From a virus (lineage: Duplodnaviria > Heunggongvirae > Uroviricota > Caudoviricetes), in IMG/VR virus record IMGVR_UViG_3300046820_001896: a stretch of DNA of 64,000 bases; one strand, written 5' to 3'. Made by a program: the position numbers and the translations under genes. Every line of letters starts with the position of its first letter. Position 1 is the stretch's first letter. Below, piece after piece: positions 51,004 through 57,069 of this stretch. The notes under the pieces were generated by a model. That model worked only from the letters and a program-made list of their open reading frames with translations. It searched no databases and was not told the DNA's origin.

Positions 51004-52095
51004 ATGTCTGTCATAAACGTAAGTTTAGAAGATACATTCGAACAATGGAGAATTAAGACTAATCAGCTTGGTTCTACCATTGGTGATGCAGCTTCTCTTC
51101 AAACAACTTCAACAAATTTAGTTGCAGCAATCAATGAAGTTCGCAGTAATGCGGTCGTTGATGGTATCGTCACGACTTATGGCAATATATTTCAAATTAA
51201 TATTGATGAAGGCGATTCAGCTGAATTAATATTAGATTTGGACGGTAACTTAACATTAGCTGGTGATTTAATTGCTGACGTTACAGGTAACCTAAATGGT
51301 AATGCTAATACAGCAACGAAACTTCGTAATGGTCGTATTATCTCTATTACTGGTGATGCGACATGGGATGTAGTATTTGATGGATCTGCTAATGCAACCG
51401 GTCAATTGCAAATCAATCCAACAGGTGTTGTACCAGGAACATTTACTAAAGTTACTGTTGATGGAGATGGTAGAATATATGAAGGTTTTGATTTAGAAGA
51501 TACTGATGTTATTGCTGCTCTTGGATATACACCAGTAAGTGAAGATGCAGGTTATGATAATCCAAGTTGGCTGACTTCTATTAATGGTAATAAAATTAAT
51601 AGTGCAAGCAATATTACAATTGCTAACTTAACTGTTGGAAGTAGAGTATATCTTGGAAACGGTTCTGCAACTGCTCCAAGTATCGGGTTTTCTTCTGATG
51701 CTGCTCAAGATACTGGAATTTATTGGGGTGGAGATGGTTACACTTTCTTCACCAACAATGGTGTAAAAAGCGGTGAGATTCAACCTGGCGGAAACTTAGT
51801 GATGGTTGGTAACGTTGGTGGTTATTCAGATATTCGTCTTAAAAGGGATATTGAAACTATCAAAGGCGCTCTTGATATTGTTAATCAGTTAAGAGGCATC
51901 TATTATACGTCTATAGATACTAATGAACGTAGCGTTGGTGTTGTAGCTCAAGAAGTACAAAACAAAATTCCAGAATTAATTAGAGTTGGTGAAAATGGAA
52001 TGCTTTCAGTTTCATATGGAAACATGGGAGGTCTTCTTTTACAAGCTATCAATGAATTGACAGAGAGAGTAAAAGCTATCGAAGCTAAATTATGA
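51004..52095 (+). CDS. tail fibre/spike protein with C-terminal S74-type intramolecular chaperone domain
   Basis: C-terminal YSDIRLKRDIETIKGALDIVNQLRGIYYT...VGVVAQEVQNKIPELI...LSVSYGNMGGLLLQAINEL is the auto-cleaving chaperone module of endosialidase-type fibres. Confidence 0.8.
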   Translation: MSVINVSLEDTFEQWRIKTNQLGSTIGDAASLQTTSTNLVAAINEVRSNAVVDGIVTTYGNIFQINIDEGDSAELILDLDGNLTLAGDLIADVTGNLNGNANTATKLRNGRIISITGDATWDVVFDGSANATGQLQINPTGVVPGTFTKVTVDGDGRIYEGFDLEDTDVIAALGYTPVSEDAGYDNPSWLTSINGNKINSASNITIANLTVGSRVYLGNGSATAPSIGFSSDAAQDTGIYWGGDGYTFFTNNGVKSGEIQPGGNLVMVGNVGGYSDIRLKRDIETIKGALDIVNQLRGIYYTSIDTNERSVGVVAQEVQNKIPELIRVGENGMLSVSYGNMGGLLLQAINELTERVKAIEAKL

Positions 52096-52502
52096 CTTTA
52101 CAAACAACAGGATTAATCACTCTTAGAGATATAGCAAATGAGGCTGGGCAACCAACCTCATTTTCGCCTTCCCTATCGTGGGTTAAATCAATCGTAAAAC
52201 CCGCAAATAGACTTCCAACTAATGAGATTGACGATGTCTATGGATTTGCATATTTCCAAAAAAATTCTGAAGGCAACTGTGCTAACGGAAATTGTACAGC
52301 AAATTGTAATTGTGGAAATATTCAATGTACTAACTGCGCTATTACTGGAACAGTAAATTGTACAAACTGCGATACACAAGCTTGGTTACAACCAAATTGT
52401 AATTGTGCTTGCACATATAATTGTAACCAAACACAAATTAGCTATAACTGTGCGTGTGCTTGTGCATGCGCTTGTGCTTGTGCTGATGGTGGCGGTGGAT
52501 AA
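52092..52502 (+). CDS. Cys/Asn-rich protein (136 aa), putative substrate of the adjacent radical SAM enzyme
   Basis: ATGA-coupled to the fibre gene. Residues 1-62 have no Cys; residues 63-130 have 18 Cys, 11 of them as Asn-Cys. Ends NCACACACACACADGGGG. Confidence 0.75.
   Translation: MTLQTTGLITLRDIANEAGQPTSFSPSLSWVKSIVKPANRLPTNEIDDVYGFAYFQKNSEGNCANGNCTANCNCGNIQCTNCAITGTVNCTNCDTQAWLQPNCNCACTYNCNQTQISYNCACACACACACADGGGG
52449..52484 (+). repeat. (TGY-GCN)6 hexanucleotide coding repeat = (Cys-Ala)6
   Basis: tgt gcg tgt gct tgt gca tgc gct tgt gct tgt gct, read directly. Confidence 0.95.
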
Positions 52503-52523
52503 ATAGTTATTTGAGGCGATATT

Positions 52524-53957
52524 ATGATATTTGAAATTTTAGCAGAACGCAGTGAAAAAGATAGAAAAACATTTTTTTACGATAATATAAAAAATGTCTT
52601 ATCTTCAGAGGATGGTTTCATATTTAGTGTGGAAAATAAAAAAACACACAATCATATTGCTATACCATTTTCTAAAAAATCCCCATTGAAAAAATCAAAG
52701 AATATTACAAAACTAAAGATCCAAATGGGTCTTTCGTGTAACTATTCTTGCGACTATTGTTCTCAAAAGTTTGTTGGTCGTCCACCAGAAACCAATAAAA
52801 AAGACATTGATGACTTTATGAAAAAGTTAGAGGTGTTAGAATTCACAGAAGAACAAGGTTTATCAGTAGAATTTTGGGGAGGAGAGCCATTCGTTTATTG
52901 GAAAACTATGAAGCCTCTCGCAGAAGCTATTATGGAAAAGTTTTCTCATTGGAAAAATAGACCTAAGTTTTCAGTGATCACAAACGGTTCTATCTTAACA
53001 AGAGACATTTGTGCTTGGTTATATTACATGGGGTTTTATGTTTCAATTAGTCATGACGGTCCAGGGCAAAGTGTCAGAGGTCCTGATCCATTCGAAGACG
53101 AAGAAGCAAAAAAGATCGTATTAGAATTTTACAAAATAATGAAGCCACAAGGTAGAATTAGTTTTAATTCTATGCTTAATTCTAAAAATAAAAATCGGAA
53201 AGCAATTCACGAATGGTTTATCAATTTTACTGGAGATCCCGAAGTTCCTTTAGGAGAAGGTGCTTTAGTTGATGCATATGATTTAGATGGTATGAATAAT
53301 TCACTATCTACTAAAGAAGAACATTTTGAATTTAGAAGAAATTCTTTTAATGATATTAGATCGAATAATGGTTATATTGGATTTGGAACTATATTACAAA
53401 AAATAGATGGTTTTACTAATTCAGTGATGAATCAACTACCAGCTTCTGGATTAGGACAAAAGTGTGGAATGGATGATCAACATGTTTTAGCGATTGATAT
53501 GAAAGGCAATGTATTAACTTGTCAAAATGTATCTGCTGTTGAAACTGCAATGAATGGTGAATCTCATTTAGGCGGAAACTTAGATGACTACGATAATGTA
53601 GAGTTAAAATCTTCTACTCATTGGGCAAATAGAGAAGAGTGTTCAAAGTGCCCAGTTTTGCATCTATGCAAAGGTTCTTGTATGTTTTTAGATGGTCAGT
53701 TTTGGAAAACAACATGCGATAATGCTTATTCTGATAACATTTCACTTTTTGCTTTAGCATTCGAAAAGATGACATCAGGGTATATTCCATTGTACATAAA
53801 TAGTAATGAATTATCCCCAGAAAGAAAAGATATTTGGGGAACAATATTAAGCCATAAAGAAGAACCTACTAAAAAAATTATTCCTATTATTGCTGTAAGC
53901 GAAAAAACAGTATTAAATGATGTAGAAGTCTATACACAAGCAAAGGTAACACAATGA
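52524..53957 (+). CDS. radical SAM enzyme with C-terminal SPASM domain (peptide-maturase / anSME-like)
   Basis: C72-x3-C76-x2-C79 (SCNYSCDYC), GGEPF, VITNGS. SPASM signature C314-x13-G-x4-C333 and C373-x2-C376-x5-C382-x3-C386, then C398. RBS gagg. Confidence 0.88.
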   Translation: MIFEILAERSEKDRKTFFYDNIKNVLSSEDGFIFSVENKKTHNHIAIPFSKKSPLKKSKNITKLKIQMGLSCNYSCDYCSQKFVGRPPETNKKDIDDFMKKLEVLEFTEEQGLSVEFWGGEPFVYWKTMKPLAEAIMEKFSHWKNRPKFSVITNGSILTRDICAWLYYMGFYVSISHDGPGQSVRGPDPFEDEEAKKIVLEFYKIMKPQGRISFNSMLNSKNKNRKAIHEWFINFTGDPEVPLGEGALVDAYDLDGMNNSLSTKEEHFEFRRNSFNDIRSNNGYIGFGTILQKIDGFTNSVMNQLPASGLGQKCGMDDQHVLAIDMKGNVLTCQNVSAVETAMNGESHLGGNLDDYDNVELKSSTHWANREECSKCPVLHLCKGSCMFLDGQFWKTTCDNAYSDNISLFALAFEKMTSGYIPLYINSNELSPERKDIWGTILSHKEEPTKKIIPIIAVSEKTVLNDVEVYTQAKVTQ

Positions 53958-54274
53958 TATTAATTGATGTAGAAAGTCAAAATTTGCCTGAATTAATTCG
54001 TTTATATAAGACTATTCCTTATGTTGTCCAAATAAGATGCAATAAAATATTAAGACAGCATTATAAAGATTTTGTAGGAGAAGATGGTTTGTATGTTGCA
54101 TGTTTAGTGCAGGTGAAGTCAGGCGAAGACAAATATTTAAAGTTTGAAGATATCTTATCTAAAGAGGTGTGGGATGATCCCATGCAATATCAATATTGTC
54201 TGCAGAATATGAAATTAAAAATAGATGATTACATAGAAAATGATGTTCTTCCAAAAACACCATATAGCGAGTAA
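53954..54274 (+). CDS. small protein, paralogue A of a tandem pair (106 aa)
   Basis: ATGA overlap with the rSAM gene. Shares NL..L......V.Q.R....L.Q...D.VG.DG....CL and K..IDDYI..D..P with the next ORF. Confidence 0.65.
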   Translation: MILIDVESQNLPELIRLYKTIPYVVQIRCNKILRQHYKDFVGEDGLYVACLVQVKSGEDKYLKFEDILSKEVWDDPMQYQYCLQNMKLKIDDYIENDVLPKTPYSE

Positions 54275-54276
54275 TT

Positions 54277-54573
54277 ATGGAAACACCTAATTTATTAACT
54301 TTAGTAAATCGTCTTAGACAAACTGAACATGTTACGCAAGTTAGATATCACCAAGTTTTAAAACAACGTTTTAGAGATTTAGTTGGAGTAGATGGTATTT
54401 CAATTGTATGTTTACTTACTAATAAAGCTAATCCTGAAAATTTTGTGAAAATTGTAACTATTTTAGAAGCTTCAGTAATTGAGAATTTAGAACGACATGA
54501 TGCTATCATAGAAGATATTAAAACAAGAATCGATGATTATATCATCAGAGATATAAGGCCACCAAAATTCTAA
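54277..54573 (+). CDS. small protein, paralogue B of the tandem pair (98 aa)
   Basis: See paralogue A. 2-nt gap. Confidence 0.65.
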   Translation: METPNLLTLVNRLRQTEHVTQVRYHQVLKQRFRDLVGVDGISIVCLLTNKANPENFVKIVTILEASVIENLERHDAIIEDIKTRIDDYIIRDIRPPKF

Positions 54574-55307
54574 TGTTAACAGATCAAGAAATTAATGACT
54601 ATTACGATAGTCTTGTGCCAGTTATGCCAAGACCAGAAGATCGTGTCGTAGATATGTCATTTAAAAATACTAATACCAACATTCTAATATCTGCCGGTAG
54701 ATTATTAGCTGTTGCCAATTATTCTGCAAGCGTAAAAGCATTAGCAGAATTTAATAAATCTAATATTTTTACATTTCAATTAGTAGGAATGGAAGAACGT
54801 CCAAATTTATATTTTCAAAAAAATAAATGTTGGAGAATTCGTGTTACTGAAGATGGTAAAGCTTGGCAAGATTCGCCTAATATTGAATCAATCGAACAAT
54901 TATATGATTTTATTTTAATCTCTCAAAAAGCTGCAGTCTTAGATGTTATTCATCGTCGTTTAGATATGAATAGACGTAGAGAAATTAAAGCTGCACAAGG
55001 TCAAAATCACATCTATTTTGCAAAATATTTAGAAGCAAAAGAAATCCTTGAAAAAGGAATTACTGAAGATCCTATTTGTAAATATCCATTTGTTACTGGA
55101 TATGCTGATTTAGTCGGAATGGATATTGTAGAAGCATCTAAGCGCATTAAATTTAAGTATGAAACTCGTGCATCATTTTTAGCAGAAAATGAAACGCTTA
55201 GATTAAAATATACTGCATTCGTTAAACAGCAAACTACTCTGGAAGATTTAGGTGCTGTGTTAGAACAATTTAAAGCTGAAAGCACAAAGTACGGCGATTC
55301 ACTATGA
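54573..55307 (+). CDS. hypothetical protein of the cassette (244 aa)
   Basis: TAATG overlap upstream and ATGA overlap downstream. Confidence 0.65.
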   Translation: MLTDQEINDYYDSLVPVMPRPEDRVVDMSFKNTNTNILISAGRLLAVANYSASVKALAEFNKSNIFTFQLVGMEERPNLYFQKNKCWRIRVTEDGKAWQDSPNIESIEQLYDFILISQKAAVLDVIHRRLDMNRRREIKAAQGQNHIYFAKYLEAKEILEKGITEDPICKYPFVTGYADLVGMDIVEASKRIKFKYETRASFLAENETLRLKYTAFVKQQTTLEDLGAVLEQFKAESTKYGDSL

Positions 55308-56425
55308 GCACTATATTTTATAATAGTTATGATATCTTCGTAAATGAAGCATATCATGAAAAACGCAATCAAATTCCAGGTGGTCATGCATTTGGTGGTT
55401 ATTTTCAATTATTTTCTAGCAATATTACATCTATTGACAGAACGAATACATTTAGTATACCACTAAAGACTACTGTATTACCTCATCTTCAAATGCCAAA
55501 AATGAGAACATTCACTAAATCATTTAGTGATATTTGTGATGATAGAGCCATTGAATTGATGAATAAAGCTAAGACAGATAATCGTAAGATTGCGGTTATG
55601 TACAGCGGAGGAATTGATTCTACTGTTATTCTGTGTGCTTTATTAAAGAACTGCACAGAACAAGATTTAAAAAACCATGTAATTGTGCTTTTGACAGATC
55701 ATAGTATTTTAGAAAATCCTAATTTTTATAATGACTATATTATCAAAAAGTTTGAATGTGTTTCAAGTTATAGATTTCCATATTTCCTAGGGAATGATGA
55801 TTACATCGTAATTTCTGGTGAAAATGCAGATCAATTGTTTGGTTCACAAGTAGTTGCTAAATTTATTGCATATCGTTCGTTTGATTATTTGTTTACTCCA
55901 TTAGATCAAGCTGCTGGGGATATCATTGATTGGATGACTATGAAATTGCAAGATGAATATAAAAAATATGCGCCTTATTATTGGCAAATGTTTAGACATC
56001 TTTGCAATGCTGCTCCGATTCCTATTGATAACGTATATAAATTTTTCTGGTGGATTAACTTTACAAACAAATGGCAATCAGTATATGTTCGTATTTTACC
56101 ATACGCTAAAAATAGAAGTAATATTAAATTAGAAGATAATTACACTACGTTTTTCTGCCCGCAAGATTTCCAATTGTGGTCATTAAATAATCCAGATAAT
56201 CTAGTAAAAGAATCTTTAGATAATGTAAAATATATCGCAAAAGATTATATTTTAGATTTTAATGGAGATCAATCTTACTATAAAAAACCTAAGATTGGTA
56301 GCTTAACTAATATTGTGAAGCAAAAAGAAATTGTTATGTTATTAAATGATGATATGACATTTACAAATGACTACCCAGATAGTCAACACTGGAATGAAAC
56401 AAACACTTTTTCGGAGATGATGTAA
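55304..56425 (+). CDS. PP-loop ATP pyrophosphatase, asparagine synthetase B synthetase-domain-like (lasso-cyclase-like)
   Basis: IAVMYSGGIDST (SGGxDS, residues 101-106) and ISGENADQLFG (AsnB GEGADELFGG). No N-terminal glutaminase Cys. Confidence 0.7.
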   Translation: MSTIFYNSYDIFVNEAYHEKRNQIPGGHAFGGYFQLFSSNITSIDRTNTFSIPLKTTVLPHLQMPKMRTFTKSFSDICDDRAIELMNKAKTDNRKIAVMYSGGIDSTVILCALLKNCTEQDLKNHVIVLLTDHSILENPNFYNDYIIKKFECVSSYRFPYFLGNDDYIVISGENADQLFGSQVVAKFIAYRSFDYLFTPLDQAAGDIIDWMTMKLQDEYKKYAPYYWQMFRHLCNAAPIPIDNVYKFFWWINFTNKWQSVYVRILPYAKNRSNIKLEDNYTTFFCPQDFQLWSLNNPDNLVKESLDNVKYIAKDYILDFNGDQSYYKKPKIGSLTNIVKQKEIVMLLNDDMTFTNDYPDSQHWNETNTFSEMM

Positions 56426-57069
56426 TGATTATTGAAAACAAGATTGATGTGCTAGATACGATGTATCCTTGTTATGCTGAAAAAGTAGTAAATGCATTAT
56501 ATCACTCTAAAGCATATTGTACATTATATGGATATATTATGTCAGGAGAAGTTACATTTCCTAATGGAAGTGTAGCTGTAGAAGGGCAATATTTTTGTTA
56601 TTGGACTGGTGAAGGTGATTCTATTAGAACTACTGGTGAAGTTTACATATTCACACGCTTTGGATTCAAAGGACAAAACACCATTGGTGGTCCAATTGAA
56701 GAAAGCGGTCGTTTAGTTTATATAGATTCTTGTTCTGATAGTTTATTGGTGTATCCTCCTAGAATGGGAGATCCATCTTTAAACTTATTACAATTTCCTT
56801 CTGCTGTCAAACAATCGTATCATATCCATCCGAGCATTAGACTTGGAGTAGTTGTAAAAGGTAAAGGATATGCTTGTATCAAAAAAGCATATGAAGAAGA
56901 ACAAATTGAATTAAAGCCAGGTGTTATGTTCTGTATAGAAGAAAGAGAACAACATCGTTTTATGACAACATACGATGAAATGACAGTTATAGCATTCCAT
57001 CCAGACGGTGATTGGGGTCCAACTGATCATAATCACACAATGTTAAACAGAACATATATTACGAAATAA
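56425..57069 (+). CDS. cupin-fold protein (tentative)
   Basis: SYHIHPSIRLGVVVKGKG and KPGVMFCIEEREQHRF resemble the two cupin motifs. TAATG overlap. Confidence 0.45.
   Translation: MIIENKIDVLDTMYPCYAEKVVNALYHSKAYCTLYGYIMSGEVTFPNGSVAVEGQYFCYWTGEGDSIRTTGEVYIFTRFGFKGQNTIGGPIEESGRLVYIDSCSDSLLVYPPRMGDPSLNLLQFPSAVKQSYHIHPSIRLGVVVKGKGYACIKKAYEEEQIELKPGVMFCIEEREQHRFMTTYDEMTVIAFHPDGDWGPTDHNHTMLNRTYITK

Follow-up and report, generated by a model that had tools for sequence, protein, structure and literature searches.

Seven tightly coupled genes on the + strand, positioned directly 3′ of an S74-chaperone tail fiber gene in a T4-like aquatic phage, probably form a maturation module for a tail-fiber-type protein, a RiPP-pathway-like system that would act on a phage structural-type protein. 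The genes are located in a window of 64,000 nucleotides (IMG/VR record IMGVR_UViG_3300046820_001896), which is the whole stretch of DNA that was analysed. Most likely, a radical SAM (rSAM) enzyme cross-links the Cys/Asn-rich domain of a fiber-associated protein, and an AsnB-like enzyme activates the C-terminal glycine of the same protein. Hundreds of phages and prophages carry the same pairing of Cys-rich protein and rSAM enzyme, a recurrence that suggests that tail-fiber-type proteins undergo an enzyme-driven maturation not described so far. We found no description of such a system in the literature, and we know of no tail fiber that needs an rSAM enzyme.

Organization of the locus

The seven packed same-strand open reading frames listed in the initial annotation were all recovered at the same positions on the + strand (Table 1), their junctions were read again, and every motif named there is present in the sequence. 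The fiber gene and the gene of the Cys-rich protein share an ATGA overlap at positions 52092–52095. Overlaps of the same kind join the rSAM gene to that of small protein A, and the gene of the 244-aa protein to the PP-loop gene. TAATG overlaps connect the genes of small protein B and the 244-aa protein, and the PP-loop and cupin genes. The gap between the Cys-rich and rSAM genes is 21 nt, and that between the genes of small proteins A and B is 2 nt. Codon changes were counted relative to L081, in which the rSAM enzyme is 95% identical. Substitutions in all eight genes (fiber plus seven) lie mostly at third codon positions, and the Cys-rich reading frame contains 35 synonymous and four non-synonymous codon changes; thus, all of the reading frames are real genes under purifying selection.

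The S74-type C-terminal chaperone previously assigned to the fiber protein is borne out by a match of residues ~275–363 to Pfam Peptidase_S74 (PF13884), an intramolecular chaperone domain, with an E-value of 3e-11 and 43.9 bits (cut-off 22). The protein also matches tail fiber families of PHROG, with E-values down to 8e-31.

Table 1. Features of the tail fiber gene and the downstream gene cluster, with positions in the window
Feature	Position	Strand	Basis
Tail fiber protein, 363 aa, C-terminal Peptidase_S74	51004..52095	+	Pfam PF13884, PHROG
Cys/Asn-rich protein, 136 aa, candidate substrate	52092..52502	+	Conservation, adjacency, codon changes; no family model
(TGTGCT)x6 hexanucleotide repeat encoding the (Cys-Ala)n tail	52449..52484	+	Tandem Repeats Finder
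Radical SAM enzyme with full SPASM domain, 477 aa	52524..53957	+	Pfam Radical_SAM, TIGR04085, phrog_1802, invariant Cys
Small protein A, 106 aa, conserved rSAM accessory	53954..54274	+	hhalign profile match
Small protein B, 98 aa, paralogue of small protein A	54277..54573	+	Paralogy, profile
244-aa protein, partner of AsnB-like enzyme	54573..55307	+	Co-occurrence; no family match
AsnB-like PP-loop adenylating enzyme, 373 aa, synthetase domain only	55304..56425	+	Fold
Cupin-fold protein, 214 aa, HxH...H, optional Gly-class member	56425..57069	+	Cupin_2 E 4e-6, invariant His

The Cys/Asn-rich protein and the radical SAM/SPASM enzyme

The 136-aa protein can be divided into a Cys-free N-terminal module (residues 1–62) with the pattern MTLxxxGxIxxxDIxxExG and a conserved domain (residues 63–130) with the pattern GNCxNGNC...NCxNCDxQxWLQPNCNCACTYNC...(CA)n, which holds 18 cysteines, as first noted, and is followed by the C-terminus DGGGG. 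Asparagine directly precedes 11 of the 18 cysteines, which make up 26% of the domain and are arranged in CxC repeats. The family comprises 165 clusters at 90% identity and 121 at 50%; its alignment contains invariant Cys and Asn columns, and no model from Pfam, NCBIfam, or PHROG matched it. The length of the (CA)n tail differs among relatives, and the tail is expanded in L102, L104, and L105. The Cys-rich domain was predicted with pLDDT values below 50, that is, without a confident fold. The N-terminal module also begins two larger phage proteins (362 and 398 aa) encoded within related loci.

The rSAM enzyme exceeds the cut-offs of both Pfam Radical_SAM (36.6 bits, cut-off 29.5) and the SPASM model TIGR04085 (35.3 bits, cut-off 27), and matches phrog_1802 with an E-value of 1e-63. 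The signature read from the sequence initially holds: CX3CX2C is formed by Cys72, Cys76, and Cys79, and the SPASM domain by Cys314, Cys333, Cys373, Cys376, Cys382, Cys386, and Cys398. An alignment that includes homologues with as little as 42% identity shows all ten cysteines to be invariant. The best NCBIfam matches are PapB (1e-20), QhpD (5e-19), and CcpM (3e-17), and the SCIFF maturase gives 1e-11; the scores are far under the cut-off of every curated family, 5–10 times for those of the ranthipeptide/SCIFF type. The nearest PDB sequences are 8vpo, followed by 5wgg/5why, which we take to be CteB. As judged by sequence, the closest named families (PapB, QhpD, CcpM, and SCIFF) are all Cys-thioether maturases, and it is this family resemblance that suggests thioether chemistry for the phage enzyme.

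Ranthipeptide, SCIFF, and related Cys-rich maturation systems (PapB, CteB, CcpM) likewise combine an rSAM enzyme and a complete SPASM domain with an adjacent Cys-rich substrate. In contrast, the phage-borne cassette lacks a leader peptidase or exporter, and its putative substrates are 125–390 aa long, have a folded N-terminal module, and are often fused to fiber autoprocessing domains or, in distant relatives, form the C-terminus of a large fiber. In the QhpD/QhpC system, an rSAM/SPASM enzyme puts Cys thioether cross-links into a subunit that is retained in a larger assembly. QhpD is the third-best NCBIfam match of the phage enzyme, with 68 bits where the family cut-off is 453. The phage locus lacks dehydrogenase partners, the proposed assembly is the phage particle, and the putative acceptor is Asn instead of Asp or Glu. 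A precedent for Asn is provided by NxxcB, which forms a beta-thioether from a Cys thiol to the Asn three residues upstream, with the bond at the beta-carbon of this Asn (PMC9389541). The NCNC and NGNC segments of the phage domain are NxxC motifs; the precedent is one of chemistry, and NxxcA, the streptococcal RaS-RiPP substrate, is unlike the phage protein a short quorum-regulated peptide.

Recurrence of the pairing and the accessory proteins

Of 77 non-redundant viral loci, at least 69 have the Cys-rich gene next to a member of the rSAM clade, either upstream or downstream of it. A protein with the CxCxC motif is encoded by 95 of 900 genes in the vicinity of the rSAM gene, compared with three of 980 genes farther off. 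This linkage supports the earlier proposal that a RiPP-like pathway matures the neighbouring Cys/Asn-rich protein. The core unit consists of the Cys-rich protein and the rSAM enzyme, usually together with a protein of tandem ~100-aa domains. The gene set of the seven-gene cassette was found elsewhere, but not as one fixed set: the 244-aa and AsnB-like proteins occur only with Gly-ending Cys-rich proteins, and the cupin is optional. Tailoring enzymes match the C-terminal class of the Cys-rich protein, and a Trp-halogenase homologue is present in 18 of the 19 loci whose Cys-rich protein ends in Trp. The substrate classes track clades of the rSAM tree, and the co-variation of class and enzyme therefore reflects few independent events.

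Small proteins A and B are paralogous (31% identity). Small protein A matched no family of Pfam, NCBIfam, or PHROG. In other classes, the rSAM gene is followed by that of a ~210-aa protein, whose C-terminal half matches the profile (hhalign 97.6%, E 4.6e-12). Searches of Pfam, NCBIfam, PHROG, and the PDB gave no match for the 244-aa protein. It accompanies the AsnB-like enzyme as an obligate partner, being present in nine of 11 loci of the Gly-ending class and in no other class, and always encoded directly upstream of the AsnB-like gene. The AsnB-like assignment is confirmed by the fold, a synthetase domain without a glutaminase domain, while the Pfam Asn_synthase score is under the cut-off. 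Members of the AsnB family without glutaminase activity include beta-lactam synthetase, carbapenam synthetase, TsnB9, and lasso cyclases. The phage enzyme differs from these in having only 373 residues, in its N-terminal ~90 residues, which bear no relationship to the Ntn glutaminase domain, and in its putative substrate, the C-terminal Gly carboxylate of a protein instead of an Asp or Glu side chain or a small molecule. The Cys-rich protein ends in GG in all nine AsnB-like loci, and in G in that of Polynucleobacter. The cupin assignment is upheld by a Cupin_2 match with an E-value of 4e-6, but its 26.9 bits are slightly below the cut-off of 27.2. His133, His135, His177, and His192 are invariant in the alignment. 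Six related loci and the Polynucleobacter prophage also encode the cupin, and L089, L104, and L105 have other genes in its place.

We infer the following scheme for the reactions, their order, and the incorporation of the product into virions. The 136-aa protein would be produced by translational coupling to the S74-chaperone fiber gene, with its Cys-free N-terminal module serving as a docking or recognition part and its strictly conserved Cys/Asn domain as the substrate. The rSAM/SPASM enzyme, using a radical cluster and two auxiliary clusters, would form carbon–sulfur (thioether-type) cross-links from Cys thiols to residues nearby; given the invariant NC and NxxC motifs, these acceptors are most likely Asn. 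The cross-linked domain would be a rigid knot independent of disulfide chemistry. The duplicated ~100-aa proteins may aid cross-linking as conserved helpers, perhaps as substrate chaperones. The AsnB-like enzyme and the 244-aa protein would adenylate the free C-terminal Gly carboxylate to give an amide or isopeptide bond, and the cupin may contribute an optional metal-dependent oxidation. The final product would most likely be a fiber-tip or adhesin-like component of the virion.

Link to tail fibers and alternative explanations

About 20 of the 120 clusters listed for the Cys-rich family contain a C-terminal S74 domain, and others contain Hint domains; either domain directly follows the CxC tail. 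Family members are also fused to Gly-rich tail-protein domains. Among 62 related loci with upstream flank, an S74 fiber is located directly upstream in 13, S74 is fused in four, and 42 have no S74 fiber within ~6 kb, their neighbours being 2OG oxygenases and other non-structural genes. The fiber-operon setting described initially holds at the studied locus, but two thirds of the related loci are not beside a fiber gene. In Proteobacteria prophages, Achromobacter phage JWF, and Ralstonia phage RSP15, in which the rSAM enzyme is 31–49% identical, the fiber protein itself carries an (NC)n/(CxC)n tail at its end. These fibers have 200–600 residues, one with collagen repeats, and are encoded 1–2.5 kb upstream of the rSAM gene; in the prophages, the genes lie in tail operons. 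In some of them, the tail immediately precedes a self-cleaving Hint domain, as in JWF gp028, where the segment is NCNCDCNCNCSC; the C-terminus of RSP15 ORF048 is NCQCGN. A Paraburkholderia prophage has the order fiber, ATGA overlap, Cys-rich gene, and rSAM gene. In a siphovirus-like Polynucleobacter prophage, the order is GpJ, S74 fiber, Cys-rich protein, rSAM enzyme, small protein, 244-aa-like protein, AsnB-like enzyme, and cupin. The S74/Hint fusions, the (NC)n fiber tails, and the Polynucleobacter cassette favour the fiber-type product of the initial annotation over a diffusible one.

Of the known self-cleaving fiber domains (Peptidase_S74; Hint/BIL), S74 is present in the upstream fiber, and S74 or Hint in members of the family. 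A small tip-type protein encoded directly after a fiber gene also corresponds to the g37–g38 order of T2-type phages, and the N-terminal module has a weak Foldseek likeness to Gp38-type adhesins (E 0.15–0.4), but a profile search gave no match to the Pfam GP38 model. Gp38 uses Gly-rich motifs and, to our knowledge, requires no modifying enzymes.

A Cys-free N-terminus, a Cys-rich core, an rSAM/SPASM enzyme, accessories, and variable tailoring amount to a ranthipeptide/sactipeptide-type architecture, and the related loci lie mostly outside fiber operons. Nevertheless, it is very unlikely that the 62 residues are a cleaved leader and that the core is freed at lysis as a diffusible RiPP (toxin, bacteriocin, or signal) with an incidental fiber neighbour: a protease or exporter is absent from every version of the cassette, the Cys-rich domain is fused to fiber-typical S74/Hint autoprocessing and Gly-rich tail-protein domains, large fiber proteins of distant relatives have the motif as their C-terminus, and the N-terminal module heads larger phage proteins. 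The recurrent S74/Hint fusions and the distant fibers that are themselves the putative substrates also speak against a non-virion protein of the infected cell or envelope (for superinfection exclusion, receptor masking, or host takeover) encoded by a mobile module that is sometimes beside fibers, as does the recurrence of fiber coupling in unrelated types: T4-like phages, Ackermannviridae-classified RSP15, and siphovirus-like prophages with J-type central fibers. We regard this explanation as unlikely; it would accommodate the many loci amid 2OG oxygenases, PhoH, and other accessory genes, the occurrence of the Gly-class cassette in structural and non-structural contexts alike, and the hydrophobic, transmembrane-like segments of the ~300-aa and 170-aa variants, those of L006/L009 and the ~300-aa class being a poor fit to a fiber tip.

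The CxC repeats and 26% Cys content would also suit a metallothionein-like domain binding metal or Fe-S, with the rSAM enzyme performing another reaction on the domain or fiber, such as formylglycine oxidation or epimerisation. The enzyme does match anSME (NCBIfam 5.5e-12; PDB 4k36, 1e-8), and the annotators of JWF gave this name to its homologue. However, the thioether maturases PapB, QhpD, and CcpM outscore anSME. Moreover, anSME oxidizes Cys to formylglycine at the motif C/S-x-P/A-x-R, which is missing from the 136-aa protein, and metal binding alone has no need of a dedicated rSAM enzyme kept adjacent across 31–99% identity. This explanation is thus quite unlikely, and a cross-linked, fiber-associated protein is favoured.

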